Positions 3,909-55,560 of a DNA stretch of 64,000 nucleotides are shown one piece after another. The stretch lies in IMG/VR virus record IMGVR_UViG_2571042390_000001, one strand, 5' to 3'. The stretch is from a virus (lineage: Duplodnaviria > Heunggongvirae > Uroviricota > Caudoviricetes). Made by a program: the position numbers and the translations under genes. The notes under the pieces were generated by a model. It made no database searches. It was not told the DNA's origin and worked only from the letters and a program-made list of their open reading frames with translations. Each line of letters starts with the position of its first letter. The stretch's first letter is position 1.

Positions 3909-4518
3909 GAATAATTATGTTCTTCTTAATTATGATGAGTTAAACGAAAAGGGGCTGGCAAAACTCGTCAAAGAAATCAGCAAAGGTGGTTACAAGATAG
4001 CGAGGGTGATCCCTGCAAGTAATGGCAGGAAGAAAGATGGGATCATGACGCGCACGTTTACCCTTATTGGTATTGATGAACAGACAATGGAAGTTCAGGT
4101 TAACGATACCGGTGATATATCTGGGATCAAACTGAATGGTAAAACAGTACCGTTCAAGCCAGTAAAAACAATGTCGGCTTTGGGGCAATCTCTTGCGGCT
4201 TTATTTAATCGCGGAGCAACTTCTTTCCAGAAGTCATTAGCTCGAAAACTTGCTCGTGCAGCAAAAAATATTGATGACGGAAATAAGAAGCGGCAGGGAG
4301 TTAAATCTAACGCTCAGAAATTAGCTGAAGCGAAAGAATCACGTGATGCACTCCGTGAAGATATCGCTAATGCTAACGACAAACTGTCTAAACTCCAGAG
4401 CAAGTCAGACAAAGTAATGCAAGATACGGGTAACGTTAAAGCTGCCTTGTCTCAGGAAGTAGCTAAGACACGTGCTCTTAAAGAAGAAATCGCGCGCCTG
4501 GAGGATGAGCATGATTAA
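3898..4518 (+). CDS. Hypothetical coiled-coil protein (Hdf-like position in a dar-type operon)
   Basis: 206 aa, charged C-terminal half with heptad-like repeats. Confidence 0.5.
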   Translation: MSNKNNYVLLNYDELNEKGLAKLVKEISKGGYKIARVIPASNGRKKDGIMTRTFTLIGIDEQTMEVQVNDTGDISGIKLNGKTVPFKPVKTMSALGQSLAALFNRGATSFQKSLARKLARAAKNIDDGNKKRQGVKSNAQKLAEAKESRDALREDIANANDKLSKLQSKSDKVMQDTGNVKAALSQEVAKTRALKEEIARLEDEHD

Positions 4519-9800: not shown

Positions 9801-9939
9801 TTGCAGGGCGACTGAGATTTTTTCTATGGCCTTGCAGATGTATGCCGATCCGGAGCAGGCGACTAACTCTGTATTAAACAATGACGGCGTGCTGGAATTT
9901 TTCTTGGGATGTATGAAGGAGTTGCAAAATGAAGTATAG
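6898..9939 (+). CDS. Large protein with C-terminal HExxH zinc-metallopeptidase-like motif (DdrB-like position)
   Basis: 1013 aa; TTG start after RBS aagggga; motif ERVLWHEIGHHIEHSN near the C-terminus. Confidence 0.6.
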   Translation: MNKSVTSALSEAADINSVIALVSSLERRETRQGRSSYVVTSKGAEVKTAFKVVDASSLIISNNLDGTINPAFPEELQPRDRTRLSSKLQVNRIASNLRPAQLTDSGMSSHGAPIVGPDNVVESGNGRSMGIWRAYEQGQADEYRQYLIDHAKEFGLNPDDISQMSMPVLVRERLTDVDRAQFARDSNISDLQEMAASEKAYADAQFLTESVMALFNPSDDGNLLARSNDAFIRAFLREIGDTATAGLLTADGRPTKQLIDRIQNAIFAKAYKDERLVRLVAEEPDPEMRNILTALNTAASDFAQMQSLSGDVHHDTVTGLVDGIEQLNGLDKQAIAALQEAINLVREAKDNGQAVEEVIAQRGLFGDSTPEAEALALFIVANNRSAKRMGAAFKKLAQKINDELIHQQQALGDMFGGGDVDLRSILSAVSDEIEAEYGEGKGLNFAMFESVSGEVEPYISKLIADATSVEDLIRIVKVSEKIKESAKKIKRNVFLELGFYIRNVTVNEIKEWAKRYGYSDAVLTTMLLSYQRSNFYANALRDAIEKGDEAPSLADERNIDCDIETFCNISEEGVPAEQFIRVLHNAAKHIPDDFSIDELRNGCLVWLGNYLKSPASIAEKTALRFRKEMNKAGSAEEMVCIIQNTLKLFKKSLHNIDDIMAAGRKITASVGVSSELTAEEIADAYIETLVRLKEIVELAEHSSYYGIKERVDFTIEQINKVRSNKEKLTDYLAEVLHQNDHGIGYDLKKMLVFNLDIPEDLQAELYEIASLTRGQKAYPNALENVVHKKVRAAFDMILESSNVSHDQSKEWSRGIAISDEAEQLSGHDNETFSRKAYSIRETIEKAYIISGGTLSTLKNINHKNNVRAFASRNGNITIDANSDHERVLWHEIGHHIEHSNPHLLERAKAFIKSKTNGKVSYHNIGSRGSAEYLVRTDLSHGYMSKIYMENTVSSVSGRFISKPPALSNCRATEIFSMALQMYADPEQATNSVLNNDGVLEFFLGCMKELQNEV

Positions 9940-14963: not shown

Positions 14964-15289
14964 AATGTATGATCTGCATCATCGACTGAAGTCATCCATT
15001 GCTGAAATTTTTAGTTGATCTTCCATGTTTTCAGGCTTATATTCATGCCGTCGTAGCAAATTCTGCGACCGGGTTTGACAGCCTGAATGTTAGTGCGGAC
15101 AACCGCAGATTTCCGATATTGCGGTATTTTTGTGTCCGTAAACCGCGTTACGCCCGAATTATGGTGGGGCGTGATGGGGAGGCTTCGGCCTGCTGGTTTC
15201 ACTAACGCCAGTCTGTCAACCCTGTCACGTCCTGCCACCTGTTTGACAGCGGGTGGCAGGTTGTTAAACCTGTTAGTGAGGCCGTAACT

Positions 15290-17087: not shown

Positions 17088-20000
17088 TTGGACAAACTAC
17101 TTCATTCAATCAGTGAAGCCTCCAGCTTAGGCGAACTGATTGAAATTGTTAGTCGGTTGCATAAATTACGTGCTGTTGCGACCTTTGGCGTCAGGAAAGC
17201 CGATGGCGTCAGTATTCAGAAAACACGCCGGGCAGCAAACAATGCCGCAGTAAATCTTCTTAATTCCCTTCCGCCCGGCTTCGATGGGGCGAAATTAACT
17301 GACGAACAACGTCAGATTCTTGCTGGGTATACCGGTGAAGGCGGCCTGACAGATGGTGAGGGCAGCCAATACGAATACTACACGCCACAGTTTATGGCTG
17401 AAGGTATATGGGAGCTGTTTGCTGACTACGGTATTGATGGCGGTCACGTACTGGAACCATCAGCTGGCACGGGTATTTTCCAGGAGACAAAACGGCAGGG
17501 AATGATAATGACCAGCGCCGAGCTGTCTCCGATCTCCGGTCGAATCAACCAGCTGTTGCACCCGGAAGACGATGTGAACATTGGGGCGTTTGAGGCTCTG
17601 GCGGCGAAAGACGCAATGTATGACCACGCTGTTGGTAACGTACCGTTTGGCGAAGGCCGTTCCGGCGTTGCAGGGCTTGATCCGGCATATGCAAACGAGA
17701 AGAACGTTGGCAATTACTTTGTGCTGCGCACGATCGACAAGGTTAAACCTGGTGGGCTTATCGTATTGGTGGTGCCGAATGGCATGACTGATGGTACGAA
17801 ATACAAAAAATTGCGCGATAAAGTCAGCCGTAAAGCGGAATTTTTGGGCGCGCATCGTATGCCTTCCGGTACGTTCAGTGAATCAGGTACAGATACCGTG
17901 GTGGACGTATGGGTATTGCGTAAACACCCGGAAGCCTTCCTGGAGATGATCCCCGATACGGATGATTCGACGCTCAAATCGGCAAACGTCCTTTGGGTTA
18001 CCTTCCTCAAAGGGAAATGGTTTACAACCGAAGGGAAGCGATTTGTTTACGGCGACATGGAACGTACCAGCTTCCGCAATACCCTAGTGGTGAAAAAAGA
18101 CGGTCGTGTATCCAATGAGTCGATGAAAACCGCGCTATCTCGTCGCTTTGATAGTCGCATCAATTGGGATTTGCTCGGCGTAACTACTCAGGCATGGCAG
18201 GGCGCGAAAGTGGGCGATAAACGCCTTGTAGGCGGTATCTGGCATGAGTTTGATGGTCTGAAATGGGTTCAGGACACGACAACCAAATCCTCCGCGCTTG
18301 ATGTAAGTCGATATGGTGTTTCGACGTTTGGCGATCTGCAGATCGCGTTCCAGTCAACAAACGGGATTCTGGCTTTGTCATGGGACCAGATATCGGCGAT
18401 CGCGTCCGACTATCCATCGGTTGTCAGTGATGAAGTGGCAGCAATGATTCGCTTTGCTGGCAAGCAGCGAGAAAAAGACAGGGAGCGCGTTATGCGCGGT
18501 GCACTGATAGGTCAGTTGATCAACAAGGCACTTGATTTGCGTAACCTGGGGGTGAACGTTGATGACAAACTGGCAGATGCATCCCGCTTGGCGGCAGCAG
18601 AAGTTGCGAAGTATGGACCACCGCACGCGATTAAGCTGAATGGGCTTGCTGAAGCTGGCGCTAAAAACTGGATGACGTTCACTGGCAATGTGAAACAGGA
18701 TGGTTCCACTTCTGACCTTCTGGCAGGGCGACTTGATGTAACGGATGGTGCTGCCGGTATTGACTTTACGCGTCCTGAACAAGTGATAGCACATCTTTTT
18801 AGTGATGTAGCCCTTAATCCTATAACGCTGGGCGACTTTCGTGAGGCGTTTGCTGGTGAACTGCCAGAGGACGACGACGCGGTCCTTGAATACCTGGCGA
18901 AATTTGATGATATCGCTATTGATGGGTATGGCTGTCTGCTGCCGATGGACCGCGCCACCAGCGGCGATGTTGCAACCAAAACAGCACTGCTGGTGGGCTG
19001 GCGTGATGCGTCAACAGGTGAGCAGAAAGCGAACTTTGAGCGTCAGTTGGCGAAAATCGAAGAGAAACGCATTTTCACGCCACTAAATAAAGTCACCGTT
19101 AATCTGAATGCCCGCTGGCTGGATCGCCGCTTGATAAAAGAGTTCCTGGCAGAGCAGGGCTATGACGAGTTTAAGTACACTGAACCTGATCTGAAGGTCG
19201 TCGATGGCATTCTGGTATCTCCGGACGATTACGAAGGTAAGGACGGGGTATTTACCGGCTATCAGCTACGAACCGTAAACGGCAAAAACGGGAATGAGTT
19301 CAAGAAGGCCAACAATAAAGACGGCTTCCTGAACCAGTTAGAAAACTACCTGAACGGTGTTAAACCGCGTGGGCAGAACGCTAACGAGTACCTGGATAAA
19401 ATTGCTCAACTGGAAGTTAGCTTTAACGACTGGTTACGCACCCACCCGCAGGCGGATCAGATAGCCCGTGACTATAACGACGCATTCAATGGTTTCATTC
19501 CGTTCACACATTCTGACGCACCGCTTGGCCTGGAAGGGATTAGTGGAAAGCGCATTCCTCTGACTTATCAGAATGAAGAAGTTCGGCGCTTGTCAGAAGA
19601 TGGGCGTGGCATCATGGGATTTGGTACCGGGCTGGGTAAAACCACGACCGCGCTTGCGCTTGAGGCGTATAACTTCGAAACAGGTCGCACTAAACGCACG
19701 TGTATTGTTGTTCCGAAGGCGGTTTATCAGAACTGGTATCACGAGGCACAGAGTTTCTACAGTGCTGATGCCTTCGCCAATATGATGTTTATCGGTTTGG
19801 ATGAAGTTCGTGATGACAGCGGAAATATTCTGACCGCGCCGGTGCTTGATGAAAATGGCGAACCACGCCTCGACAGTAACGGGCAGCCTCTTACCAGAAA
19901 TGTTGTGAAAGAGTCCTCCAGCGCCGTTATCGTTCAGCGTATGAACATGATCCCGTCGTCAAATTGGCGAACGGTCATCATGACAAAAGAACAATTCGCG

Positions 20001-23000
20001 TCTATCCCGCTACGAGAAAAAACCATCGAGGAGAACTCACAGCAAGCTGTCTTTAATGCTGTGGAAATGGGGCGTCTTGACCTGGCGTCCGGTAAACACC
20101 GTGATGCGCAGAAGAAGAACAAGATTAAGGATCAGGCCGCGAATACCGGTACAACGAAGAAGCAGAATATCCCTTACTTTGAGGATATGAACTTCGATAG
20201 CGTGATTGCCGACGAGGGGCATAACTACCGCAACTCCTTTAATGCCGGGCGTGAAGCGGGACAACTGGCATATTTGCCTAACCCGGCAGTATCCAAGATG
20301 GCCCGCGACATGGCTGTAAAAGCTGCGTACATGATGAAACGCAACAACGGGCGTGGTGTAGTCATGCTGACGGCAACACCGCTGGTGAACAGTCCGATTG
20401 ATGCCTTCAACATGCTGTCTACTGTCATTCCGCAGGAAGAGTGGATGCGTATGGGCATCATTACGCCTGATGATTTCGTTCGTGTGTTTGGCAAAACAGC
20501 CACAGTTCAGGTCCAGAAAATTTCCGGGGAAGTGGAAGAGAAGCAGGGGCTGGTGGGCTTCCAGAACCTTGACGGCCTGCGTGGTATTTTCCATCGTTGG
20601 ACCACTCTGAAGACTGCTGCAGATGTCGGAGCGACGGTTAAAATTCCCGACATCATCGAGAACACCTTGCAGATCCCGATGACAGGGGAGCAGGAGACTG
20701 CTTATGAAGAGCTTCGTAAGCGTGCTCAGGAGTTAAGTCGCAATGATGAGCTGACAGTCGATGAAAACGGGCATATCACTAACGACAAACCGGATGATTT
20801 CATCTTCTCCATCATCCGTGACATGGATAAGGTTGCTATAGACCCGGATCTGTATGCCAGTGCGATTACATTCCAGTTCCCCGTTGAGCTTGCAGACCAG
20901 GTAAAAGCTATTGCTGATGCCTTGCCAAAAGTAGCTGGCGGTAAAGTGGCAGATGATGTTGATGAGGCCGAGGAAGACGGCGCTGGCGGGCTGGTCAGTA
21001 CGCGTACCAGCAAGGTAGTGAAGACCGCTTTTAGTGAACATCCGACGCATGTTGAAATACGTGCCAGCATTGAACTGGAAGCTGAAATACTGAAGGCCAT
21101 TGCGGCTGCCGGCATTGATATGCAGCAGGTGTCGCACCCCATCCCGCCGAAGTATGCCGCGCTGATCGAAAATCTTCGTGAAGGTCTGAAGAACGGTAAG
21201 CAGATCGTCTTTATTGATGAAAAAGCCCAGCACCAGAAGCTGCGCCGTATTATCGCCAGTGCACTGCAAATGCCGGAGCAGGAGATTGGCATTATCAATG
21301 CGACGACAGTTAGCCAGGCTGGTGGCATCAAGCTGAAGAAGGTGAATAAGCCGACCGAACCTACTCCAAACAAAAACGGTGAATACAAAGAAGGGGCATG
21401 GGAAACCTACTACAGCAAACTTGCCCAATATGAGGATTATCTCTCCGCTAAAAATGATGCTGGCCTTGAGGGCATGGAAGGTATTGCCGCCGACTATAAC
21501 GAAGGTCGCACGCGCATCATAATCTGTAACAAGAAGGCTGAAGTAGGTATTAACCTGCACATCGGGACAACCGATATCCACCACCTGACACTACCCTGGA
21601 CACCAGCCAGTATCGACCAACGAAATGGGCGCGGTGCGCGCGTAGGTTCACCGCAAGAAAAGGTCAATGTTCACTACTATTGTGGCAAAGGCACATTCGA
21701 CGACTTCCGTCTGGATACGCTGAAACGTAAGAAAGACTGGATCAAGATGGTGATGACATCCGACATGTCAGAGATCGCCAATGGTGATGCGGATGATGCT
21801 GATGAACGCGCCATTATGCTGGCGGCAAACCCGGAAGAACGCCGCGCAATCATGGCTCGCCAGGCGCAAGAGCGTGAAGAACGTCTGAAACTGAAAGCAC
21901 AGCGCGAGGCCAACAATGCTCTCGATATCTACCTGAAAGCGGCAAACGCCGCCGGAAAAGATATCGGCATGATGGAGACAGAACTGAAAAGCGCGATGGA
22001 ACAGATAGAGTATTACCAGCGCAATCTTGACGACCTGATAAAAGCGGGTACGAACAGGAATGGGCAAAAATACGCGCTTGAGCAGTTGAGTAGCTACAGA
22101 AAACGTGCGCGGGTGCTGCGGTTTGCGATCACCAGGGCAAAAGACGCGGATACCATAATGAAACGCTCTCGTGGTGATGTGGAGCGCGCTATTAAGTCTG
22201 GTGTGCTGGATATCAGTATCGATGTTATTCAGAACCCACAGGAATATATGCGCACTGACAAGAATATCCTGTTGCATAAAGGTAGTTATTACCGTGCAGT
22301 CATTGATGATCGCGAAACAACAGCGATTGTCCGGGTGGAAAAAATTGACGGTGAAAAAGCACAATACCTCTGCCGTATCGCCTGGCTGGATAGAGCAAGT
22401 CGTTACGCTCGAGCACCGGGGTCAATCGTTACATTGCCGTTTGACTCTGTGATTGAAGCGGTAACTTTTGAAGAGGGGGTAGCTGAATCGCGCGCAACGG
22501 CTGCGCGTGGTGTTCAGTGCCACCAGCTATCAACAATACTTACTCGCGATCAGTTCTATGATGCTATTCGCAATGGGGTAATGAATGTTATTGCTGGTAA
22601 ACCTGGTAATGCATGGGGCGGTGGGTCAGCTATTAAATACTGGGCATATCGCACAGATGATGGTCAGATCGCGCTGTCATCGGCCTATGATGGCGTGATA
22701 GGCCAAAAAATCGGGCGAGCATCGGATATAGCACCTGAGCGATGGATATATCCTGATGGCAACGACGAGGCGCTGAAGCGTGAAGTGGCAAAAATACAAG
22801 CCAGTGATAACCCGCTGAATATCGTGGACGGCGAGGGATTCCTCCAGGCATTGTATGGGTATGATTACACCCAGGGAATGCAGGCATGGGGCGCACAGGC
22901 AACGATGGATGATGTTGCCCATGAGTTCGAAAACTGGATGGCTGGGCGTGGTCTGTCAGGTCGTTCGCTTAATAAAGTCACTTCTGAAGATATTCTTAGC

Positions 23001-23924
23001 TTGTTCCGCAAACCGTCCGGAGAAGGTCTGGAATCATTCTGGAGGACCGTGCTGGCATACCGTTTATTCCAGGGCAGGATGAAAGCCTTTAGCAATATCG
23101 ATGATATTGAACGGATGTTTAATCAGGTCAAGATCGCGAAAATTAAGGCGAAGATCGAAAAAACACGTTCTGCGCTGGTGGCCTGGCGCGATGCATTGTT
23201 TGAGCAATATAAATCACTCAGTGATGCAGATGGATGGGCGGCATTGGAACAGCTGGCGAATAATGGGGTAGATGGAGCGAAACTCGCCATTGTTCAGGCT
23301 GATAACCCCCTGGAATCACCGGCAGCACAGTGGATTAAGGTGGGGGCTGTCATCAATGCATTTGATGAAAAACACATTAGTAAGGACGATTTTGCTGATG
23401 CTGTTTCTGTTAATCGCCTGGTAGAAATGGCTACCCGCCGCGCCCGTGAGTTGAAAGACGGCGACTATGTGAATGAGTTGCCGGATACGCTCAAATCGGC
23501 AACGTGGCAGGACTATGTATCGCTGAAAAACGGCGGGGCCACTGAATCAGAGATCGCGGAAAGGCTTGAGCAGGCTGAAAGCAAAAGAGAAGAGCAGGCG
23601 GCAGTGGCTGAAGCCAGAGCTGATGAAGCGGCGAATGATGACTATATCATTGTGGTTAATGATAAGCCGATTCGCGCTAAGGCGCGTGTTCGCGGGCGCT
23701 GGTGGAGCGTCAGCGAGGACGTTGGCGCGGTTTATCTCATTGCCGACCAACCAGGTTCCTCGACAATACGGAACGCCAAAGACGCGATTAAGAAGATTGG
23801 CGGACGTTTCTGGAATTTTGAAGCAAACCCGGTTGCTGATGTGAACTTTGACCGTCCTGCATGGATGGTATCTACGCGTTACTCGGTAGATGAACTGCGT
23901 AAAATAATCGCCGATGCGGCCTAA
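17088..23924 (+). CDS. darB: Giant DarB-like protein: N6-adenine methyltransferase domain plus SF2 helicase domain
   Basis: 2278 aa; MTase motif I VLEPSAGTGIF and motif IV NVPFGE; helicase Walker A GFGTGLGKTTTA, DEGH box VIADEGHNYRN, later QRNGRGARVG; TTG start after RBS. Confidence 0.8.
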   Translation: MDKLLHSISEASSLGELIEIVSRLHKLRAVATFGVRKADGVSIQKTRRAANNAAVNLLNSLPPGFDGAKLTDEQRQILAGYTGEGGLTDGEGSQYEYYTPQFMAEGIWELFADYGIDGGHVLEPSAGTGIFQETKRQGMIMTSAELSPISGRINQLLHPEDDVNIGAFEALAAKDAMYDHAVGNVPFGEGRSGVAGLDPAYANEKNVGNYFVLRTIDKVKPGGLIVLVVPNGMTDGTKYKKLRDKVSRKAEFLGAHRMPSGTFSESGTDTVVDVWVLRKHPEAFLEMIPDTDDSTLKSANVLWVTFLKGKWFTTEGKRFVYGDMERTSFRNTLVVKKDGRVSNESMKTALSRRFDSRINWDLLGVTTQAWQGAKVGDKRLVGGIWHEFDGLKWVQDTTTKSSALDVSRYGVSTFGDLQIAFQSTNGILALSWDQISAIASDYPSVVSDEVAAMIRFAGKQREKDRERVMRGALIGQLINKALDLRNLGVNVDDKLADASRLAAAEVAKYGPPHAIKLNGLAEAGAKNWMTFTGNVKQDGSTSDLLAGRLDVTDGAAGIDFTRPEQVIAHLFSDVALNPITLGDFREAFAGELPEDDDAVLEYLAKFDDIAIDGYGCLLPMDRATSGDVATKTALLVGWRDASTGEQKANFERQLAKIEEKRIFTPLNKVTVNLNARWLDRRLIKEFLAEQGYDEFKYTEPDLKVVDGILVSPDDYEGKDGVFTGYQLRTVNGKNGNEFKKANNKDGFLNQLENYLNGVKPRGQNANEYLDKIAQLEVSFNDWLRTHPQADQIARDYNDAFNGFIPFTHSDAPLGLEGISGKRIPLTYQNEEVRRLSEDGRGIMGFGTGLGKTTTALALEAYNFETGRTKRTCIVVPKAVYQNWYHEAQSFYSADAFANMMFIGLDEVRDDSGNILTAPVLDENGEPRLDSNGQPLTRNVVKESSSAVIVQRMNMIPSSNWRTVIMTKEQFASIPLREKTIEENSQQAVFNAVEMGRLDLASGKHRDAQKKNKIKDQAANTGTTKKQNIPYFEDMNFDSVIADEGHNYRNSFNAGREAGQLAYLPNPAVSKMARDMAVKAAYMMKRNNGRGVVMLTATPLVNSPIDAFNMLSTVIPQEEWMRMGIITPDDFVRVFGKTATVQVQKISGEVEEKQGLVGFQNLDGLRGIFHRWTTLKTAADVGATVKIPDIIENTLQIPMTGEQETAYEELRKRAQELSRNDELTVDENGHITNDKPDDFIFSIIRDMDKVAIDPDLYASAITFQFPVELADQVKAIADALPKVAGGKVADDVDEAEEDGAGGLVSTRTSKVVKTAFSEHPTHVEIRASIELEAEILKAIAAAGIDMQQVSHPIPPKYAALIENLREGLKNGKQIVFIDEKAQHQKLRRIIASALQMPEQEIGIINATTVSQAGGIKLKKVNKPTEPTPNKNGEYKEGAWETYYSKLAQYEDYLSAKNDAGLEGMEGIAADYNEGRTRIIICNKKAEVGINLHIGTTDIHHLTLPWTPASIDQRNGRGARVGSPQEKVNVHYYCGKGTFDDFRLDTLKRKKDWIKMVMTSDMSEIANGDADDADERAIMLAANPEERRAIMARQAQEREERLKLKAQREANNALDIYLKAANAAGKDIGMMETELKSAMEQIEYYQRNLDDLIKAGTNRNGQKYALEQLSSYRKRARVLRFAITRAKDADTIMKRSRGDVERAIKSGVLDISIDVIQNPQEYMRTDKNILLHKGSYYRAVIDDRETTAIVRVEKIDGEKAQYLCRIAWLDRASRYARAPGSIVTLPFDSVIEAVTFEEGVAESRATAARGVQCHQLSTILTRDQFYDAIRNGVMNVIAGKPGNAWGGGSAIKYWAYRTDDGQIALSSAYDGVIGQKIGRASDIAPERWIYPDGNDEALKREVAKIQASDNPLNIVDGEGFLQALYGYDYTQGMQAWGAQATMDDVAHEFENWMAGRGLSGRSLNKVTSEDILSLFRKPSGEGLESFWRTVLAYRLFQGRMKAFSNIDDIERMFNQVKIAKIKAKIEKTRSALVAWRDALFEQYKSLSDADGWAALEQLANNGVDGAKLAIVQADNPLESPAAQWIKVGAVINAFDEKHISKDDFADAVSVNRLVEMATRRARELKDGDYVNELPDTLKSATWQDYVSLKNGGATESEIAERLEQAESKREEQAAVAEARADEAANDDYIIVVNDKPIRAKARVRGRWWSVSEDVGAVYLIADQPGSSTIRNAKDAIKKIGGRFWNFEANPVADVNFDRPAWMVSTRYSVDELRKIIADAA

Positions 23925-27122: not shown

Positions 27123-27140
27123 TGTGTTAGAAATCTAAAA
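27122..27140. promoter_or_regulatory. Operator-like motif
   Basis: atgtgttagaaatctaaaa, overlapping the stop codon of the 402-aa gene. Confidence 0.45.
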
Positions 27141-27276
27141 TCACAATTCGAATGTATTGATTGTGAAGATAACTTAACATAGAATTTTCCTTGCTGGTGG
27201 GCGGTACCCACGTTTCGCTTGCTGGGCTTGATAGTCACTTATTGGTTATTGTTCGCCCACCAGCATTTAACAAATT

Positions 27277-27296
27277 AAAGTGTTAGAAATGTATAG
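27277..27296. promoter_or_regulatory. Operator-like motif
   Basis: aaagtgttagaaatgtatag. Confidence 0.45.
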
Positions 27297-27872
27297 TAAT
27301 GCAAGAGCACGCTTTGGCACCGTGCAGGCCAAAGTTCAGCAGGTTTAGTGCGGAAAGTGGTTTCAGAGAGAGCACTTTGCGGAGTAAACGACAATACATG
27401 TTGAGCCACGGAAGGTCTTTTTAAGGTGTTCATTGATGATGGTCCGGCAGAGAGTAACGGTACATGCTGCATCTAATCATCAATGCACATCTTCAACATT
27501 AAGGAGGCATAGGGATTTTTGTGGCGGTTACCTTTTGCCCTGAGTCTCCTTAATGTTGCGGTAATGCACCTATGCGGATGTGGCCTTGCATTGTGTCTTG
27601 AAAGAATGGGGTAAGGCCGGGGATATCCCCAGGGGGAGGCACCCCCGCTGCAACGAACAGCCACAGACGGCAGTCGAGTGATGGAAACGTGTAAAGACTT
27701 TAAACCTCGTTACGGCTGGCGTGGCAAACGCGACAACCGAGACAGAGCGGTGACGGGCGGAGAGAGTGCCGCATCAAGAAAGAAGCCGACTTGTGATCCC
27801 TTTCAGCGGGCATTTGAAAGTGAATCCAGCTCAGGCAGTCGGCTTCTTTCTTGTGTGAGATGTAGCGTATTT

Positions 27873-27896
27873 GCCCATCTTCGGGTGGGCTTTTTT
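27873..27896 (+). terminator. Intrinsic terminator inside the ORF-poor region
   Basis: gcccatc-ttcg-ggtgggc followed by TTTTTT; preceded by a 16-bp-stem hairpin at 27767-27846. Confidence 0.55.
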
Positions 27897-28357
27897 AGGG
27901 TTTTCGTCATGGTTAGCGACTTTGCGGCGGTTTAGAAACTGACCATTAAAGTAAATGCAAACGATGATCTGATGATGGTAGCGGCCTAAGAAGCCAGACG
28001 CCACGGGGTATGAGTCGTCCCCCGTCAAAAAAATCGACCGCAGAGTGTCCCCGTCTGTGTATTAGGGAACGGGGAGGCATAACAGGCAAGGGCGCTGGTG
28101 TGATTAACCAGATGAATGAGAAGGGTCAGGTCTTTCTGGTCAGCGCCCTTACCTGTTGCGTCCTTCCCGCGTAACAGCCATTGCTTAATGGCATCCTGGG
28201 AGAACTTCTTGTAACGGGTATATCCCGTCATGCTGAAGGCGCTAATCACGCTGGAAGCCAGGGTTGTGCATCCCCTGTTACCGAATTGCAGCCAGGGCGC
28301 GGTGCGCCGAAAAGCATACGGAGGTGGAAGCCCTCGCCGGAGACGTACCCGGCAAGT

Positions 28358-28432
28358 GATGGTGTAGCTCAGCGGTAGAGCAGTTGGCTGTTAACCAACT
28401 GGTCGGTGGTTCGAATCCACCCACCATCGCCA
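28358..28432 (+). tRNA. tRNA-Asn (anticodon GTT)
   Basis: 75 nt with CCA; acceptor gatggtg/caccatc, T-arm ggtgg-ttcgaat-ccacc, anticodon loop ctGTTaa. Confidence 0.85.
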
Positions 28433-28437
28433 ATTTA

Positions 28438-28524
28438 GGGGAGTTAGTCCGTAGGGGTAGCGGGGTAGACTGTAAATCTACTGTCATTGCGACTCGGGTG
28501 GTTCGACTCCATCACTCCCCACCA
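28438..28524 (+). tRNA. tRNA-Tyr (anticodon GTA), type II with long variable arm
   Basis: 87 nt with CCA; acceptor ggggagt/actcccc, anticodon arm gtaga-ctGTAaa-tctac, variable arm gtcattgcgac, T-loop ttcgact. Confidence 0.7.
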
Positions 28525-28528
28525 AATT

Positions 28529-28604
28529 GCCGGTTTAGCTCAGTTGGTAGAGCAGTCGCTTTGTAAGCGAATGGTCAGCGGTTCGATCCCGTTAACCGGC
28601 ACCA
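28529..28604 (+). tRNA. tRNA-Thr (anticodon TGT)
   Basis: 76 nt with CCA; acceptor gccggtt/aaccggc, anticodon loop ttTGTaa, T-loop ttcgatc. Confidence 0.85.
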
Positions 28605-29058
28605 ACACAACAGGTAAGAGCATTTGTAGAGTTCGACTCTCTACCGTGGGCTTTTTCCCGCGATGCGAGCCATAAATGCTCTTACCGTTGTGATGAAGTG
28701 CAGCTCTTTGAAGCAACCAGAAGATAAGCATCTGGCTTCACAACATAAACCGCAGGAACGACCAATAAACGGTAGTCCGTATGGAGAACACCCCGTTGAG
28801 GAAGAGGTCTGGCCGGAACCGTAACCGGCACTACAACGTTGAGAACACTGGCGTAACGGGGTCATATCCCAATCTACGAATAAATGTTGCGTTGCAGCGT
28901 GACAACCAGTGTTCTCAACATTGTGGTGAATGCGCAGGCTGATGCGCGAAAGACATTGCAGCTATTGCGGAAAAGAGCTGTTCGGCGGGGCAATTAAACG
29001 CCCGTGAGAGTCTGAAATAACCGCAAGCCGGAGATCAGCACCGGTCGCCACAATAACG

Positions 29059-29145
29059 GGAGAGTAGGGAGCATGGTGCTCAAGCGGTCTTGAAAACCGT
29101 CCCATTGCGCAAGCGATGATGGTTCGATTCCATTACTCTCCGCCA
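29059..29145 (+). tRNA. tRNA-Ser (anticodon TGA), type II
   Basis: 87 nt with CCA; acceptor ggagagt/actctcc, anticodon arm gcggt-ctTGAaa-accgt, T-loop ttcgatt. Confidence 0.7.
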
Positions 29146-29436
29146 GTGCAACATTAAGGGTATTTGGCTAATTAAGCGAATGCCGGAAGCAGAACCGGAT
29201 CACCAAATGCGTACAGGCGTCATCGCCGCCCAGTCAGCCAAATGCTCTTACCATTGCGGTGAATGCGGCTAAGCGCACGCGGAACAGTTAAAACAGTAAA
29301 GGTGGTCTTTTTACTGGCGTAACGAGAATCCATAAGTGATCCGGCGTTAATTGTTAACTGGTTAACGTCACCGGGAGGCGCCCGGCACCGCAACCTAACA
29401 GCAATGGCGTTTTGTCTTAAAAGGTGGCTGCAAGTG

Positions 29437-29565
29437 ATGGATTTTTGGGCGTTTGCCGATAAAAACCCGGAGTGGACATTATTGTTTCTGCTGGTGGTTG
29501 CATACGGGGTAGAGCAAGCGGCAAAAGCCTTACGCGGTTCTGGCAAAAAGCGTAAGCGTAATTAA
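29437..29565 (+). CDS. Possible small membrane peptide (42 aa)
   Basis: RBS aaggtgg then ATG; MDFWAFADKNPEWTLLFLLVVAYGVEQAAKALRGSGKKRKRN; hydrophobic core with basic tail; sits between tRNA genes. Confidence 0.25.
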   Translation: MDFWAFADKNPEWTLLFLLVVAYGVEQAAKALRGSGKKRKRN

Positions 29566-29574
29566 CAGTAATCT

Positions 29575-29650
29575 GGCCCTTTAGCTCAGTGGTTAGAGCG
29601 GGCGACTCATAATCGCACGGTCACCGGTTCAAGTCCGGTAGGGGCCACCA
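29575..29650 (+). tRNA. tRNA with CAT anticodon (Met or lysidine-modified Ile)
   Basis: 76 nt with CCA; acceptor ggccctt/aggggcc, anticodon loop ctCATaa, T-arm accgg-ttcaagt-ccggt. Confidence 0.85.
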
Positions 29651-30102: not shown

Positions 30103-30678
30103 ATGTTAATGGCGAACGATAACGCATATACAGAAGAAGATCTCATTTTGAGTGACTTCATAGGGAAGCGTGAACGCTGGACCCAAAAGCGAGAGGAAAT
30201 TTACGCCTCATTAGTTCGCAAAGGCGTCAATATCGAAACCGCACAGAGCGGCGATATGACAGTGGTAAGCGTTGGATTGCACGGTGTAAGCGTGTCAGCA
30301 ATCAATCATGAGCCATACGTTGCGTTATCCGAGTCAATGGTAAGGTTAGTTAAGTTCCTGAAATACACAGAAGCGAATAATGTAATCATTGGCAAAAAGA
30401 ATATCCCTTTTTCCTCGGCTTTTTACTGGATGATGAAAGGGCTTGATGCCCGGCGGACATCATGGCCCAAAGGGAGCTATATATCGATGTTCCGTGGCAG
30501 TATTGGCAGCAAAGAAAAGCTCTTCGAATTCTTGCCGGAAGAGGCATTCGATATTGTGGAAGGGTGCGATGTGATGGTGATGCCTCGCCTGGTAATGATG
30601 AATGGGGATTTACAGGCGCAGACAGACTGGTTTGCAACTGGTGTGGATATTATCGCGACTGACTGGGAGGCTTTCTGA
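30103..30678 (+). CDS. Hypothetical protein with C-terminal DUF2829-like domain
   Basis: 191 aa; C-terminal part FSSAFYWMMKGLDARRTSWPKG ... QTDWFATGVDIIATDWEAF. Confidence 0.55.
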   Translation: MLMANDNAYTEEDLILSDFIGKRERWTQKREEIYASLVRKGVNIETAQSGDMTVVSVGLHGVSVSAINHEPYVALSESMVRLVKFLKYTEANNVIIGKKNIPFSSAFYWMMKGLDARRTSWPKGSYISMFRGSIGSKEKLFEFLPEEAFDIVEGCDVMVMPRLVMMNGDLQAQTDWFATGVDIIATDWEAF

Positions 30679-31070
30679 TGTACGGGACTACCAAATTAAG
30701 CACTCAACAGGCCACCAATATGGAGTGGTCTATCGCTAACTGTAAGATCGAGTCATGCAATGCCACGCGTACTGATGTGGGCCATAAAAGCACTATAACA
30801 GGCTATCTAGTAATGACCACCAGGGGGATAAGGGTTAGATTTCGCTGGAAAGCAGAGCAAGTAACCCCATTCAGAGAGCCATCAATGCCGCTGCAGGTTG
30901 AGCAGGATTATCTATGTTTACCAGAAATAGATGGAGGAATGCTGGTGGAGTCTGATGGTAGTAAGGCTGATTTTGAAGCCAATTTGAAGCTGGCACAGGC
31001 CGTAATCAATAGTTATCGCGGACAGTGGATCGCAAAAGTGAAACATGTTGTTCGTTTGTCTCGCTGGTAG
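30678..31070 (+). CDS. Hypothetical protein
   Basis: 130 aa; ATGA overlap with upstream gene. Confidence 0.5.
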   Translation: MYGTTKLSTQQATNMEWSIANCKIESCNATRTDVGHKSTITGYLVMTTRGIRVRFRWKAEQVTPFREPSMPLQVEQDYLCLPEIDGGMLVESDGSKADFEANLKLAQAVINSYRGQWIAKVKHVVRLSRW

Positions 31071-31178: not shown

Positions 31179-31571
31179 ATGGAACAAATCAGCAGCGCAG
31201 AAATTGCGGATATCATGATCAGGGCTGACTGCTATCTGACAGTCACTGAAATTACCACTCTCGCCAAAGAAAAATACCCTCATCTCCATGTTTCACGAGT
31301 AAGTGTAACTAACATCATTCGTCATTTTGTTCGTTCAAGCAGGGCAATCTGTGAGCTTGATGATCGTGTTTACCCACGAAAATACTGGTTGCATGGCCTG
31401 AACGGATATCAGTTCAAGGTGCGTGGGCGAACCCCTGAATATGGCAGTTTACTGGTTAAAAACTGTAGCAGGAAATCAGTCGAACAGGCGCGAAAAGAGC
31501 AACGAGAGCTGGTGGACATGGCGAATAAGCTGTGGAATGCCGCCGTTAAAAAGCGTGGTGTTGCTTTATGA
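31179..31571 (+). CDS. Hypothetical protein in the position P1 uses for the late-promoter activator Lpa
   Basis: 130 aa; operator-like motif upstream; immediately precedes pacA; homology not verified. Confidence 0.4.
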   Translation: MEQISSAEIADIMIRADCYLTVTEITTLAKEKYPHLHVSRVSVTNIIRHFVRSSRAICELDDRVYPRKYWLHGLNGYQFKVRGRTPEYGSLLVKNCSRKSVEQARKEQRELVDMANKLWNAAVKKRGVAL

Positions 31572-32932
31572 GTCTGGTTAATTGGGAGGAGCACCGCGCC
31601 CGCTTTATAGCGTTGCGTGAAGAAAAAGGGATCACTGTAAAGGAATACTGTGAGGAGCATGGCCTTAGCTTCAATACAGCCAGAAAGCATCTCAATATGA
31701 AAAAAAATGAGGTGCGGTCGCAGGTAAAGACAACAAAAAAAAGCACCAAATCACCTGAAAAAAAACGGGCGGGAAGAGCAACAAAAAAGCTGGAAGAGGG
31801 TGCAGAAAAAACAAAATTTACAGAAATTGACAATTCGCAGGGCGCAGGTTCTTTCCGAAGTATGCCGAGAAAGAAAACTTCGGATCATGAAAATAATTCA
31901 AATAATAACAATGAGATAAAAGAATCTGTCAGGAGATCATTGCGCGAAAAAATGGCGAAAATGATCCCCGAAGAAGATAAAAACGCCCCAAAAATTGAGG
32001 GATCTTCTGCAATGATCCCTGACGGTGCTGTGCAGCGTGCCACATTGCCAACTACGAATGTGGCTCGCGATATGATGAAGAACGGCGCAGAAGAACACCT
32101 GCGGTTAGCAATTCAAATGGCGCAAGAGCGCGCACTTCAGTATCAAAGCATTGTTGATCAGGAGGCCGAACGTCTACAGGCGGAAATAGACGCCTTGGGC
32201 GATAAAGAGCCAGAAGGAATGCACCCTGGGCAGCGCCTTCTCGGTCTAATCAGTGACGCGGCCTACTACATGAATGATTTTATCAGTAGGTTGGCAGCTA
32301 TATATCAGTCCGAACAAAAGCTGCGACAGGGGGATGAAAAGCTTCGTCAGAGCGCTCGCCAGCAAGCATTCAAAGAGGCTGAGGCCAGAGAAAAACTCGA
32401 ATTAGCACGCCTACAGGCCGAACAGCGTGGCAAAGAGATTGAATATCGCATTGGCGCTGACGCACGCGCAGCCAGAGTTATCGCCGCCGCTATACGTATG
32501 CGTGAGCGCGAGGAACTGGATGATATCGGTGTTGCTGAATACATCGAGCGCCAGGGTGTCAGCGTCCCGGCTATCCTCGCGGCGCGCGCGGCGAAAGCTA
32601 TCACTCTTCTCGAACCACCTGTTTCTGACGTCAATGATGTTGATGATGAACAGCTGGACAAAGAGGCAAGGGAGTTTGCAACGCTTCAGGCTAACCATCC
32701 GCAATGGCTGGCAGAGCGCCGGGCGGATGTGGCAACCATTGTTGAAGAATTGGGGTGCGGAGATTACGACCGCAATGGCGAGCGTAAAGCTGGAGAATTC
32801 GAGGCCAACGACGAAGAGCTGGATATTGACCCTTCGGCAACGGCTGAAATTTACGGTGATTATGATGCATCTGATGCAGGGTATGACGCCGGAGATGATG
32901 ATATCGCGATAGAACCGCCGGAGGATGATTAA
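31568..32932 (+). CDS. pacA: Terminase small subunit, PacA-like
   Basis: 454 aa; N-terminus MSLVNWEEHRARFIALREEKGITVKEYCEEHGLSFNTARKHL resembles my recollection of P1 PacA; acidic C-terminus; overlaps the large subunit gene. Confidence 0.65.
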   Translation: MSLVNWEEHRARFIALREEKGITVKEYCEEHGLSFNTARKHLNMKKNEVRSQVKTTKKSTKSPEKKRAGRATKKLEEGAEKTKFTEIDNSQGAGSFRSMPRKKTSDHENNSNNNNEIKESVRRSLREKMAKMIPEEDKNAPKIEGSSAMIPDGAVQRATLPTTNVARDMMKNGAEEHLRLAIQMAQERALQYQSIVDQEAERLQAEIDALGDKEPEGMHPGQRLLGLISDAAYYMNDFISRLAAIYQSEQKLRQGDEKLRQSARQQAFKEAEAREKLELARLQAEQRGKEIEYRIGADARAARVIAAAIRMREREELDDIGVAEYIERQGVSVPAILAARAAKAITLLEPPVSDVNDVDDEQLDKEAREFATLQANHPQWLAERRADVATIVEELGCGDYDRNGERKAGEFEANDEELDIDPSATAEIYGDYDASDAGYDAGDDDIAIEPPEDD

Positions 32933-34440
32933 TGGCTGGCGGGCGCAAGATTAAATGCGTCACCAGCGATCCACGCTGGCGCGATATGGTAATCAAATAC
33001 CGCTACAACTTTACCCAGGCTGTAGTCGATATTTTTGGGATGTTCCCCTCCCACCAGCAGCAGCAGATCATTCAGTCAGTGCAGGAAACGGGGAGTAGGA
33101 CGACCGTCACGTCCGGACACGGAACGGGGAAGTCGTCCCTTACCGCGATGTTGCTGTTGATTTTTATGATCCTGTTCCCCGATGCCCGTGTCATCATTGT
33201 TGCTAACAAGATAGGCCAGGTAAAAACAGGCGTATTCAAATACGTTAAACAGTATTGGGCGAATGCAGTTAAGCGTCATGGGTGGTTGCAGACCTATTTT
33301 GTCCTCTCTGACACCATGTTTTATGAGCGCTCCCGTAAGGGGATTTGGGAAGTTCTCTGCAAAGGTTATCGACTCGGCAACGAAGAAGCGCTGGCGGGGG
33401 AACACGCGGCACATTTGCTTCTAATTCTGGATGAAGCATCTGGTATATCTGATAAGGCGATCGGCGTAATGACCGGTGCTCTTACTGAAGAAGATAACCG
33501 GATGTTGATGCTATCCCAGCCAACAAGGCCAAGTGGTTATTTCTACGATTCGCACCATTCTCGAGCAAAAACCCCAGACAACCCGAAAGGGATCTGGACA
33601 GCAATTGTTCTTAACTCGGAAGAATCACCGTTCGTCACACCACAATTCATCAAGGAGAAGCTTCTGGAATATGGTGGGCGCGATTCTATTGAGTACATGG
33701 TCAAGGTGCTTGGTCAGTTCCCACGAGAAATTAACGGCTATTTGCTTGGTCGTGATGAATGCGATCGCTCTGCTCGCCGCAAGGTGTTGTTGGAGAAAAA
33801 CTGGGGATGGGTGGCAACGGCTGACGTTGGTAATGGGCGAGATAAGTCGGTCCTCAACATCTGCAAGGTATCAGGTCACAGGGATAAGCGGCGCGTTGTT
33901 AACTTTAAGGTAATGGAGATGCCTGGCACTATGGACCCATTGGCCTTTGCTGACTTCATATATAACGAATGTACGCCGGAAAAATACCCGAATATAACAA
34001 TCGCGGTTGATGCTGATGGTTTTGGTTCTGATACGTGTGCGCAGTTGGTGCGTCGTGGTGCGAACCCGGTACGTATTCGGTGGGGAAAACCCATGTTTGC
34101 GAACAAAGACAGGGAGCGATTTGTTAATCAGCGTGCCTACGCAAATATTATGGCGCGAGATGCCATAAAGTCAGGGCGTATGCGGATAGACAGTGACCCT
34201 AAAACGGCAGAGCAAGCGTCAAAAATCCCCTTTTTACTGAATGAAGAAGGGAAAATGGCGATGATGCGCAAAGAGCACATGCGGCAAAAGCTAAACATCA
34301 AATCGCCTGACCGATGGGATACCTACTGCTTCACTATGCTGGTGGACTATGTGCCTGCTAATGAAGATATTGGTGCCGAAATGGCAACTTTCCGAGATCA
34401 GGTTCTGGCGGATATCGAAATGCCGGATCTGGATATATAA
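32932..34440 (+). CDS. pacB: Terminase large subunit, PacB-like
   Basis: 502 aa; Walker A TSGHGTGKSS, Walker B LLLILDEASG, C-terminal nuclease-type region with conserved acidic residues. Confidence 0.8.
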   Translation: MAGGRKIKCVTSDPRWRDMVIKYRYNFTQAVVDIFGMFPSHQQQQIIQSVQETGSRTTVTSGHGTGKSSLTAMLLLIFMILFPDARVIIVANKIGQVKTGVFKYVKQYWANAVKRHGWLQTYFVLSDTMFYERSRKGIWEVLCKGYRLGNEEALAGEHAAHLLLILDEASGISDKAIGVMTGALTEEDNRMLMLSQPTRPSGYFYDSHHSRAKTPDNPKGIWTAIVLNSEESPFVTPQFIKEKLLEYGGRDSIEYMVKVLGQFPREINGYLLGRDECDRSARRKVLLEKNWGWVATADVGNGRDKSVLNICKVSGHRDKRRVVNFKVMEMPGTMDPLAFADFIYNECTPEKYPNITIAVDADGFGSDTCAQLVRRGANPVRIRWGKPMFANKDRERFVNQRAYANIMARDAIKSGRMRIDSDPKTAEQASKIPFLLNEEGKMAMMRKEHMRQKLNIKSPDRWDTYCFTMLVDYVPANEDIGAEMATFRDQVLADIEMPDLDI

Positions 34441-36930: not shown

Positions 36931-36948
36931 TAAATTTCTAACACATCT
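36931..36948. promoter_or_regulatory. Operator-like motif
   Basis: taaatttctaacacatct, just after the dre stop. Confidence 0.45.
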
Positions 36949-55389: not shown

Positions 55390-55560
55390 TCGCACAGCCA
55401 TACTTAGCGTTTAGCTCAGAGATCAATGGTAGTGCTGGCTGGGCTGCCGAAAGGCAGGCCGGTTCCCTTTGACGCCGGTAGTTCCAACCCAGTCAGTGCT
55501 ACCGCCATTGAGATTGGAACCTCACGCGGTAGCTCCTTAACTTAGTCAAAGGAGGCTGCC
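55390..55560 (+). ncRNA. Candidate c4-type antisense regulatory RNA locus; boundaries not defined
   Basis: ORF-free, hairpin-rich leader between operator and icd-like gene, where P1 places c4; no sequence match verified. Confidence 0.2.

Follow-up and report, generated by a model that had tools for sequence, protein, structure and literature searches.

The 64,000-nt stretch of DNA analysed here, one strand of IMG/VR virus record IMGVR_UViG_2571042390_000001 (hereafter the window), belongs to a D6/P1-family phage-plasmid, and it carries an array of five tRNA genes between positions 28,358 and 29,650. We consider this array to be probably, if by no means surely, a dual-purpose tRNA supply module, which combines codon supply with the replacement of host tRNAs destroyed by nucleases, and which mainly supplies decoders of rare codons. 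Upon entry into lytic growth the five tRNAs would probably be made as one precursor, and this precursor would be processed by host enzymes and the products charged by host synthetases, so that phage tRNAs keep phage translation running. Within the module, Ile2, Thr and Ser would read AUA, ACA and UCA, codons that E. coli uses rarely and that are 2.5- to 4.7-fold enriched in the phage, and Asn, Tyr and Thr, in the alleles found here, would replace host tRNAs destroyed by AriB, P2 OLD and the PtuAB nuclease of retron-Eco7.

Five tRNA genes in the array

ARAGORN was run over the whole 64-kb window, and its calls were compared with the Rfam tRNA model (RF00005, gathering score 29 bits). In total five tRNA genes were returned, all on the + strand; in the following, AsnA and ThrA denote the P1-type alleles, and AsnB and ThrB those of the window.

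28358-28432, + strand: tRNA-Asn(GUU), allele AsnB; ARAGORN; Rfam 75.5 bits
28438-28524, + strand: tRNA-Tyr(GUA), type II; ARAGORN; Rfam 41.9 bits
28529-28604, + strand: tRNA-Thr(UGU), allele ThrB; ARAGORN; Rfam 67.2 bits, 27-43 pair flagged as non-canonical
29059-29145, + strand: tRNA-Ser(UGA), type II, non-canonical; ARAGORN; sub-threshold tRNA-Sec match only
29575-29650, + strand: tRNA-Ile2 (CAU anticodon); ARAGORN; Rfam 66.7 bits

All five genes encode CCA at the 3' end, and all have 7-nt anticodon loops of the form N-U-anticodon-purine-N with U33, while Tyr and Ser additionally possess the long variable arms of type II tRNAs. The Asn, Thr, CAT and Tyr genes passed the RF00005 threshold with window-wide E-values of 1.7e-5 to 9.7e-15, which exclude chance for these four, whereas Ser remained below the gathering score and produced as its sole Rfam signal a tRNA-Sec match (43.5 bits versus a threshold of 47). 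A preliminary description, made by manual folding, had listed five tRNAs with these anticodons in this order, all with CCA, and ARAGORN returns the identical set, coordinates included; the type II character that it gave to Tyr and Ser agrees with their variable arms. It had left these two candidates to prediction software, which accepts Tyr throughout and Ser through ARAGORN but not through RF00005. Its statement that P1 encodes only three tRNAs is borne out by NC_005856, which has Asn, Thr and Ile2-CAT only.

The CAT gene is tRNA-Ile2, which would decode AUA after lysidine formation, and not tRNA-Met. Its acceptor stem (GGCCCUU/AGGGGCC) forms the pairs C4-G69 and C5-G68, by which, as Ikeuchi et al. 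reportedly found in 2005, TilS separates tRNA-Ile2 from tRNA-Met. The gene is 89% identical to E. coli ileX (68/76) and 99% identical to P1 trnI, which is annotated tRNA-Ile2. With annotations by the Prokaryotic Genome Annotation Pipeline (PGAP) of identical sequences taken as a proxy for the isotype, a sequence identical to the window gene is labelled tRNA-Ile.

Codon supply

Codon usage in 45 long open reading frames (ORFs) of the window (13.8k codons) was compared with that in 40 ORFs of a 50-kb MG1655 segment, called in the same way. The codons most enriched in the phage relative to the host were AGG (6.4-fold), AUA (4.7-fold), AGA (4.6-fold), CGA (2.8-fold), ACA (2.6-fold) and UCA (2.45-fold). 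Among the 61 codons, AUA (11.5 versus 2.5 per 1000 codons in phage and host), ACA (14.1 versus 5.5) and UCA (13.0 versus 5.3) thus rank 2nd, 5th and 6th, and the probability that all three fall in the top 6 under random ranks is p = 5.6e-4. For Ile2, Thr(UGU) and Ser(UGA), codon supply has good support. For Ser it is also the better explanation, since UCA is 2.45-fold enriched, the anticodon arm of Ser is essentially that of the host, and no tRNA-cleaving nuclease (tRNase) targeting Ser(UGA) or Ile2(CAU) was found in the tRNase-defence literature searched. Asn is weakly consistent with codon supply, as AAU ranks 11th (1.83-fold) and AAC is at 0.88-fold. The Tyr codons are barely enriched (UAU 1.30-fold, UAC 1.15-fold), so codon supply does not explain Tyr.

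These ranks would also be expected if the array served codon compensation and nothing else, with its anticodon-stem differences being neutral by-products of descent from the tRNAs of other phages. Such an explanation would further accommodate the tRNA-Arg(UCU) that takes the first gene position (slot 1) in sister arrays, as it reads AGA and AGG, the codons ranked 3rd and 1st, and it agrees with the host-like anticodon arm of Ser and with the absence of tRNA-Lys(UUU), which all published rescues from the PARIS defence system needed. We regard it as rather unlikely all the same. Neither Tyr nor Asn has a rare E. coli codon, and the values for UAU, UAC and AAC given above leave little to compensate; the distribution and the anticodon stems of the alleles, presented in the next two sections, count against it as well.

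Array composition in the P1-like family

The 5' junction of slot 1, which is invariant, served as the anchor for taking 113 P1-like loci from IMG/VR, and ARAGORN was applied to all of these loci. Of 121 loci overall (numbered with the prefix L), 88 arrays, including the window and seven reference loci, were complete to the CAT gene, and they fall into eight compositions, whose fractions are only indicative because the IMG/VR loci are not independent samples.

Asn-Thr-Ile: 43 of 88 arrays
Asn-Thr-Ser-Ile: 13 of 88 arrays
Asn-Tyr-Thr-Ile: 12 of 88 arrays
Arg-Tyr-Thr-Ser-Ile: 8 of 88 arrays
Arg-Thr-Ser-Ile: 5 of 88 arrays
Asn-Tyr-Thr-Ser-Ile: 3 of 88 arrays (the window and IMG/VR contigs L054 and L110)
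Asn-Ile: 2 of 88 arrays
Asn-Ser-Ile: 2 of 88 arrays

Within this modular locus the combination found in the window is in the minority, and it is not an invention of its lineage. The suggestion that Tyr and Ser may be additions in this lineage holds insofar as both are accessory relative to P1, but they are recurrent P1/D6 cassettes, present in 23/88 (Tyr) and 31/88 (Ser) arrays.

The closest relative in the phage collection was D6, with 91.6% identity over 85% of 2 kb, and in the plasmids and E. coli genomes p95_MLI121 (NZ_CP117014), with five annotated tRNAs, was 98.9% identical over the whole 1.4-kb array; unlike the window, which has Asn there, it carries Arg(UCU) in slot 1. Gene order is of the D6 type, with a pmgS-like gene, the tRNAs, a Tad2-like gene, an ORF without known function, lpa and ORFs in the pacA/pacB position, and it is shared with D6, the D6-like plasmid pYU39_89 and RefSeq plasmids such as p95_MLI121, as are the Ser gene and the spacer modules. 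D6 and pYU39_89 differ from the window in that they have only four tRNAs (Asn, Thr, Ser, CAT), lack Tyr and carry the P1-type alleles of Asn and Thr; for pYU39_89 the published tRNAs are Asn, Thr, Ser and Met (PMC6799933). With the trnA-trnT-trnI array of P1 (NC_005856) the window has in common the module, its orientation, a leader of about 490 nt and the slot order Asn, Thr ... TciC, Ile2. In contrast to P1, Tyr stands between Asn and Thr, Ser occupies the place of plp-upl, tciA and tciB are missing, the Asn and Thr alleles are 89% and 87% identical to those of P1, there is no P1-type C1 operator or Pban, and tad2, lpa and the pacA/pacB-position ORFs follow where P1 has ban. The gene content of the array is already known, being present and annotated in public records as a phage tRNA cluster at the known P1/D6 site: phage Ro157c2YLVW carries Asn-Tyr-Thr-CAT with Tyr annotated, and RefSeq plasmids with five annotated tRNAs exist.

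Anticodon-arm alleles and their linkage

Two Asn alleles and two Thr alleles exist in the family, distinguished by the anticodon stem, which is GUUGA/UCAAC in AsnA and GUUGG/CCAAC in AsnB, and CCUGC/GCAGG in ThrA and GUCGC/GCGAA in ThrB, the last with U28/A42 and a G27xA43 mismatch. Between ThrA and ThrB (alleles tgt2 and tgt4), 10 of the 12 differences lie within the block 26-45, and the two are identical over the first 25 nt and over the 16 nt from position 61, in the 3' strand of the T stem, to the CCA end. Linkage between genes is strict: Tyr always occurs with AsnB or Arg in slot 1 (23/23) and never with AsnA (0/56), and ThrB is found only alongside Tyr (14/14), while Ser is distributed independently. 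That Tyr is kept in 23 of the 88 arrays in such strict association with particular Asn, Arg and Thr alleles, and that the ThrA/ThrB differences in block 26-45 sit exactly on the published OLD/AriB determinants described below, argues against codon compensation as the sole function.

Slot 1 holds Arg(UCU) in 13 of the 88 complete arrays, all 13 of which also have Ser, and 15 slot-1 Arg(tct) genes were counted across the 121 loci; PGAP tRNA-Arg annotations equivalent to window 28358-28432 lie at L005 2559-2635, L006 549-625 and L007 462-538. In these genes the acceptor stem, the D stem and the entire 3' half (variable loop and T arm) are identical to AsnB, and only the D-loop and the anticodon arm are replaced, an apparent switch between Asn and Arg identity by arm replacement on a fixed scaffold. 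Recombinant or decaying alleles (gtt10, gtt14 and tct2) also occur in the family, with an Asn-5'/Thr-3' fusion gene and an AsnB/AsnA hybrid among them, and in p95_MLI121 three additional changes in the Arg allele disrupt one D-stem pair and one anticodon-stem pair; gtt10 and tct2 are probably decayed. When the Thr allele of the window was sought in phages with experimental data, such as phage 21, the only carriers were Ro157c2YLVW and CMS-2020a, and the next best match was at 88%.

Correspondence of the alleles to nuclease determinants

The PARIS nuclease AriB depletes tRNA-Lys(UUU) as well as the tRNAs Thr(UGU) and Asn(GUU), and it cuts between positions 40 and 41 in the context U36-A-A-U-C/A (slash at the cut), at or near which the resistant tRNAs of T5 are altered (PMC12409363); Lys, Thr and Asn tRNAs of T5 act as 'rescue' tRNAs against PARIS (PMC11464382, PMC12409363). 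P2 OLD preferentially destroys thrU and requires CNG at 28-30 and 40-42, and phage tRNA-Thr(UGU) variants that escape it carry changes such as C28U/G42A plus loss of the 27-43 pair (PMC12445682). Retron-Eco7 (PtuAB) depletes tRNA-Tyr and is bypassed by T5 tRNA-Tyr (PMC11555353). Thr UGU, Asn GUU and Tyr GUA of the array are therefore anticodons of published nuclease targets. At positions 36-41 the relevant tRNAs read as follows.

Host thrU: UAAUCA, AriB target
Host asnT: UAAUCC, AriB target
T5 Lys: UAAACC, in agreement with the published U39A/A41C
T5 Thr: UAAGCA, rescue validated
T5 Asn: UAAGUU, rescue validated
P1 AsnA: UAAUCA, host-like, ideal AriB motif
Window AsnB: UAACCA, C39
P1 ThrA: UAAGCA, G39
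Window ThrB: UAAGCG, G39 and G41

The position numbering is validated by the T5 Lys arm, which reproduces the published U39A/A41C. Compared with the host, the window alleles are changed at the determinants in Asn (U39C) and in Thr (U39G, A41G, C28U/G42A and the 27-43 mismatch). For OLD, host thrU and P1 ThrA both present CUG/CAG in a 5-bp stem, whereas ThrB presents UCG/CGA with the G27xA43 mismatch. The window thus resembles the T5 rescue set in its Thr, Asn and Tyr anticodons and in Asn and Thr genes that lack the U39 of the UAAU motif, and it resembles the OLD-resistant phage tRNA-Thr in combining C28U/G42A with a broken 27-43 pair. It differs from T5, a virulent phage with ~24 tRNAs, in being a temperate element with five tRNAs and without tRNA-Lys(UUU); the Thr and Asn genes of T5 are not homologous in detail to its own (62-66% identity).

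Taken together, it is plausible that the AsnB-Tyr-ThrB cassette, which looks like a replacement-tRNA set, would act against PARIS AriB, P2 OLD and retron-Eco7. The preliminary description had extended this idea to tRNAs of all the identities that it listed as possible substitutes for nuclease-destroyed host tRNAs; it has specific support for Asn, Thr and Tyr, whose anticodons are published targets, and none for Ser, for which the literature searched gave no targeting tRNase. Schlafen-type nucleases were considered as a threat specific to Ser or type II tRNAs and set aside, as the paper on bacterial Schlafens names neither Ser nor Tyr as a target. A stronger version, which we hold only tentatively and judge to be less probable than its opposite, is that AsnB-Tyr-ThrB is a dedicated P1/D6 counter-measure to the Toprim nucleases AriB and OLD and to retron-Eco7. 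In that version, the locus would evolve by swapping of D-loops and anticodon arms on fixed acceptor/T-arm scaffolds, including the Asn/Arg switch of slot 1 on an identical acceptor stem, and the P1 alleles (Asn UAAUCA, Thr CUG/CAG) would be sensitive and the window alleles resistant. Our literature searches found no paper on P1-family tRNAs and defence, nor one proposing such sensitive and resistant alleles or the swapping of anticodon arms on fixed scaffolds with its Asn/Arg switch.

Several points weigh against the dual-purpose reading. tRNA-Lys(UUU), the prime target of AriB, was needed in every published PARIS rescue (PMC12409363), and ARAGORN found no tRNA-Lys in the 64-kb window or in any of the 88 arrays, so that by precedent the array alone could not neutralise the characterised PARIS. 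AsnB is altered in just one base pair (G31-C39), which could be neutral, and the Thr of P1 itself already has G39, like that of T5. C28U/G42A by itself did not protect thrU from OLD (PMC12445682). Rescue from retron-Eco7 was driven mainly by promoter strength and expression, and host tRNA-Tyr worked too (PMC11555353), so the likeness of the window Tyr to T5 Tyr proves little. The allele differences may simply reflect recombination with the tRNA genes of other phages. Furthermore, the only promoter-like match lies 1.2 kb upstream of the array with a terminator-like hairpin intervening, the codon baseline is one 50-kb host segment with ORF-based gene calls, and the array fractions carry the reservation stated with them.

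At the other extreme, the array might be counter-defence cargo throughout, every gene replacing a nuclease-cleaved tRNA in a neighbourhood with Dar genes upstream and Tad2 downstream. In addition to the three target anticodons and the alleles altered at the determinants, such a view would find support in a Tad2-like gene 450 nt downstream, in DarA, DdrB and DarB-like genes in the same window, and in the G27xA43 mismatch that shortens the anticodon stem of Ile2 in all P1-likes. It is nonetheless improbable, given that the searched literature offers no tRNase for Ser(UGA) or Ile2(CAU) and that the anticodon arm of Ser is essentially the host's. Ile2, Thr and Ser strongly match the rare codons most over-used by the phage, P1 Asn keeps the ideal AriB motif UAAUCA, which would be odd for a dedicated decoy, and in a mosaic phage little weight attaches to genes lying next to each other.

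Protection of the lysogen against the tRNase colicins E5 and D, jointly with the tci ('tellurite or colicin resistance') genes, was weighed as well. The targets of colicin E5 are the queuosine tRNAs Tyr, His, Asn and Asp, and that of colicin D is tRNA-Arg (PMC12409363); Asn and Tyr of the array are two of the four queuosine-family tRNAs, the alternative slot-1 allele is Arg, and P1 has tciA/B/C inside its array, a tciC homologue remaining in the window. We find this barely credible. The phage Asn and Tyr anticodon loops are identical to those of the host (CUGUUAA and CUGUAAA), so a colicin that reads the loop should cleave them too, and neither a His nor an Asp tRNA is in the array. The preference described for colicin D is for tRNA-Arg(CGN)-type species, not UCU (PMC12409363), and according to the GenBank annotation the P1 operon is repressed in the lysogen.

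The type II tRNAs Tyr and Ser

The Tyr gene, with anticodon GUA, has G1-C72, A73, the acceptor GGGGAGU...ACUCCCC-A-CCA and the variable region UGUCAUUGCGACUCG; a 4-nt connector precedes its D stem, and U28-A42 stands in place of the host's C28-G42. Identity is 93% with rV5 Tyr, 84% with T5 Tyr and 69% with host tyrU, and the gene shares with T5 tRNA-Tyr an identical 33-nt block covering the variable arm and the T arm. The sequence was identical in 20 of the 26 Tyr copies. Tyr and Ser are members of phage tRNA families common to rV5 and T5. The rV5-like (Vequintavirus) tRNA cluster, with Arg UCU, Tyr, Ser UGA, Thr UGU, CAU and Pro, has nearly the same anticodon set as the P1-family pool, and its Tyr (93%) and Ser (90%) are close to those of the window, the variable arm of Ser differing by compensatory changes. 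In contrast, these phages are virulent and of an unrelated type, their gene order is different, and their Thr, CAU and Arg genes reach only 68-72% identity, which leaves Tyr and Ser as the genes that are clearly common to rV5 and the window. When the Tyr junctions of P1-likes, rV5 and T5 were compared, the common part consisted of short AT-rich spacers only, which is too little to prove en-bloc transfer.

The Ser of the window has A8 in place of U8; its D stem is 4 bp long and closed by a 5-nt loop, and a GCAA loop caps its 6-bp variable stem. Its fold was examined in 12 homologues, from P1-likes, rV5-likes, a Pseudomonas phage, T5-like and T4-like Klebsiella phages and an Acinetobacter phage, which were segmented by hand and checked against the real sequences. 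In the resulting template a 7-bp acceptor and an invariant A8 are followed by a 2-nt connector; the D stem has 4 bp and its loop 3-6 nt, the anticodon stem has 5 bp and the variable stem 5-7 bp, the T stem has four inner pairs, and an invariant U precedes the 3' acceptor strand. Pairing is kept in every stem across these phages, whose host genera are Escherichia, Klebsiella, Pseudomonas and Acinetobacter, and double-sided compensatory changes occur in D-stem pairs 2-4, in the anticodon stem, in T-stem pair 2 and in acceptor pairs 1, 5 and 6; in the acceptor, G2-C71 and A3-U70 are invariant and G73 is present in most homologues. Because of this stem pairing and these compensatory changes, Ser can be taken as a genuine conserved tRNA. 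T5 tRNA-Ser1(UGA) fits the same template, and the T5 GenBank record describes it, with a swapped anticodon, as an 'effective amber suppressor', which indicates that the Ser architecture works in translation.

An (8/4) tRNA-Ser or allo-tRNA class has been reported in bacteriophages and proteobacteria (Mukai et al., PMC5389517). The window Ser is like these tRNAs in its long variable arm, in its Ser-type acceptor (G1-C72, G2-C71, A3-U70, G73), in a very small D loop, and in a position 8 that could extend the acceptor to 8 bp and leave a T stem of 4; it is unlike them in its anticodon stem of 5 bp and D stem of 4(-5) bp. An A8-U pair giving 8/4 is possible in 12/12 homologues, but the rival 7/5 G.U pair is also possible in 12/12, and neither varies. 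The D arm is only partly Sec-like (4-bp stem, 3-6-nt loop), compared with the long stem and tetraloop of allo-tRNAs. As judged from its pairing, Ser would be compatible with the (8/4) tRNA-Ser described in phages, and it is not filed as an allo-tRNA because its anticodon stem is not lengthened.

Homologues of the Ser family are present in 351 phage records, in many of which they are unannotated. In P7 (L004 2463-2549) a Ser(UGA) identical to that of the window carries no annotation, the D6 record states 'AA not called by tRNAscan-SE', the Ser of pE2863-2 is 'tRNA-OTHER' (PGAP), the homologue in Klebsiella phage Riker (L129 61-142) is labelled 'pseudogene', and many rV5-like records list no feature at this place. 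The CAT (Ile2) gene of D6 (L001 3549-3624) is likewise unannotated and was found by ARAGORN.

Labels such as 'tRNA-OTHER' and 'pseudogene', together with the non-standard D-arm regions and the low or failing covariance-model scores of Tyr and Ser, might suggest that the two are non-functional baggage, namely pseudo-tRNAs in decay or scars of recombination, acquired from rV5- or T5-like phages, and the locus does contain recombinant fusions, probably decayed alleles (gtt10, tct2) and spacers that look like tRNA relics. We think this highly improbable. The identity of 20 of 26 Tyr copies, the pairing preserved in most Ser variants, and a Ser fold kept by double-sided compensatory changes in phages of four host genera all speak for maintenance, as do the suppressor activity of T5 tRNA-Ser1, which has the same architecture (GenBank), and the biological activity of T5 tRNA-Tyr, a member of the same family (PMC11555353).

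Neighbouring genes and regulation of the array

The following features flank or interrupt the array.

27157-27185, + strand: sigma-70-like promoter match TTGATT-17-TAGAAT, the only such match upstream of the array
27870-28357, + strand: non-coding leader of ~490 nt, near-identical in P1, D6 and p95_MLI121
28613-28686, + strand: spacer hairpin H1, 13-bp perfect outer stem; minimum free energy (MFE) -35.8 kcal/mol, z -5.6
28829-28928, + strand: spacer hairpin H2, 23-nt arms, 91% complementary; MFE -49.2 kcal/mol, z -6.8
29148-29257, + strand: spacer hairpin H3, directly 3' of Ser, 31-nt arms, 71% complementary; MFE -39.4 kcal/mol, z -2.6
29434-29565, + strand: TciC homologue, 43-aa ORF; BLASTP 39% identity over 33 aa, E 3e-8
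30103-30678, + strand: Tad2-like (Thoeris anti-defence) protein, 191 aa; PF11195, 39.3 bits versus cutoff 25; phrog_7362
30678-31070: ORF without known function; phrog_7004
31179-31571, + strand: Lpa (late promoter activator); PF25716, 192 bits
31568-32932 and 32932-34440: ORFs in the P1 pacA/pacB position, from the ORF list and named by position only

The TciC-like ORF ends 9 nt before the CAT tRNA, as in P1, and PGAP calls the same ORF in p95_MLI121; with tciA and tciB absent from the window array and the TciC homologue kept, TciC and trnI appear to move together. In the Tad2-like protein the domain is C-terminal, and homologues in L005 (WP_000928281.1) and L006/L007 (WP_000928280.1) are named 'Thoeris anti-defense Tad2 family protein' by PGAP. 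With Lpa and the pac-position ORFs downstream, the array is placed in front of early lytic genes, and its expression would be expected early in lytic growth.

In P1, the leader and the tRNAs lie inside the C1-repressed ban operon; our statements on P1 regulation follow the GenBank annotation (NC_005856). Control by P1 C1 was considered and rejected for the window, where the operator ATTGCTCTAATAAATTT has no matches at up to 3 mismatches in the 64 kb, and the regulation can thus not be copied from P1. The promoter match at 27157-27185 is a candidate start of the tRNA transcription unit. It is bracketed by two exact copies of GTGTTAGAAAT (27124-27134 and 27280-27290); a third exact copy lies at 36934-36944, and copies with one mismatch are found at 13731, 24832 and 54095. 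These six occurrences at up to one mismatch compare with 1.35 expected, and six were reached in 1 of 100 shuffles; GTGTTAGAAAT may be the repressor operator of this lineage. The leader is ~99% identical to that of P1 in two blocks, which are set apart by a divergent stretch whose indels do not come in multiples of three, and upstream of the leader the sequence bears no relation to P1. The leader starts with a hairpin and T-run (27873-27896), whose P1 counterpart is the end of the annotated 'dicF-like region'.

The outer stem of H1 covaries between lineages and encloses a T-arm-like hairpin, which in D6 is a textbook GGTTCGAATCC T-arm; H2 is absent from L054 and L110 despite the same five tRNAs; and a direct repeat ending in CTCTTACCnTTGnGnTGAA follows each of H1, H2 and H3. 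None of the three matched an Rfam family or was called by ARAGORN. They might represent tRNAs that have decayed, tRNA-like stable RNAs or processing sites of the RNase III type, and the T5 record, which annotates 'tRNA-like stable RNAs with unknown functions' within its tRNA region, offers a precedent. Rfam searches of the leader and spacers at permissive E-values yielded nothing credible, only microRNA-type hairpin noise and a sub-threshold STnc100 match, the latter at 29255-29392 between Ser and the tciC-like ORF (39.1 bits versus gathering 47, E 1.2e-6 for the 1.45-kb stretch).

Elsewhere in the window, P1-type anti-restriction genes lie upstream, encoding DarA at 4472-6436 (PF18788/PF18789) and a DdrB-like ParB-domain protein at 6898-9939, and a 2278-aa SNF2-domain protein occupies the DarB position at 17088-23924. 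No glnS, reported in D6-like genomes, was found among the window ORFs of at least 400 aa. Matches to C4 antisense RNA occur at 15037-15242 (68.8 bits) and 55299-55509 (77.1 bits), the first with an a1/b1 target match (15037-15089) and the second with an adjacent isrK match (55299-55377), which suggests two immI-type regulatory regions.

Implications for the P1 family

The array is a routine and already annotated feature of P1-like phage-plasmids, and in this respect existing knowledge is unchanged. Phage tRNA censuses, however, undercount the non-canonical Ser(UGA) family, whose members are often unannotated or listed as 'pseudogene' or 'OTHER'. The P1 family also provides a test bed, in which natural, near-isogenic arrays differ by single cassettes and by single anticodon-stem alleles; as P1 is tractable and PARIS, P2 Old and retron-Eco7 are cloned, codon supply versus defence evasion is directly addressable by allele swaps. 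If AsnB-Tyr-ThrB were indeed a dedicated counter-measure, with sensitive P1 alleles and resistant window alleles, these loci would form a natural allelic series that records an arms race with defences carried by competing prophages.

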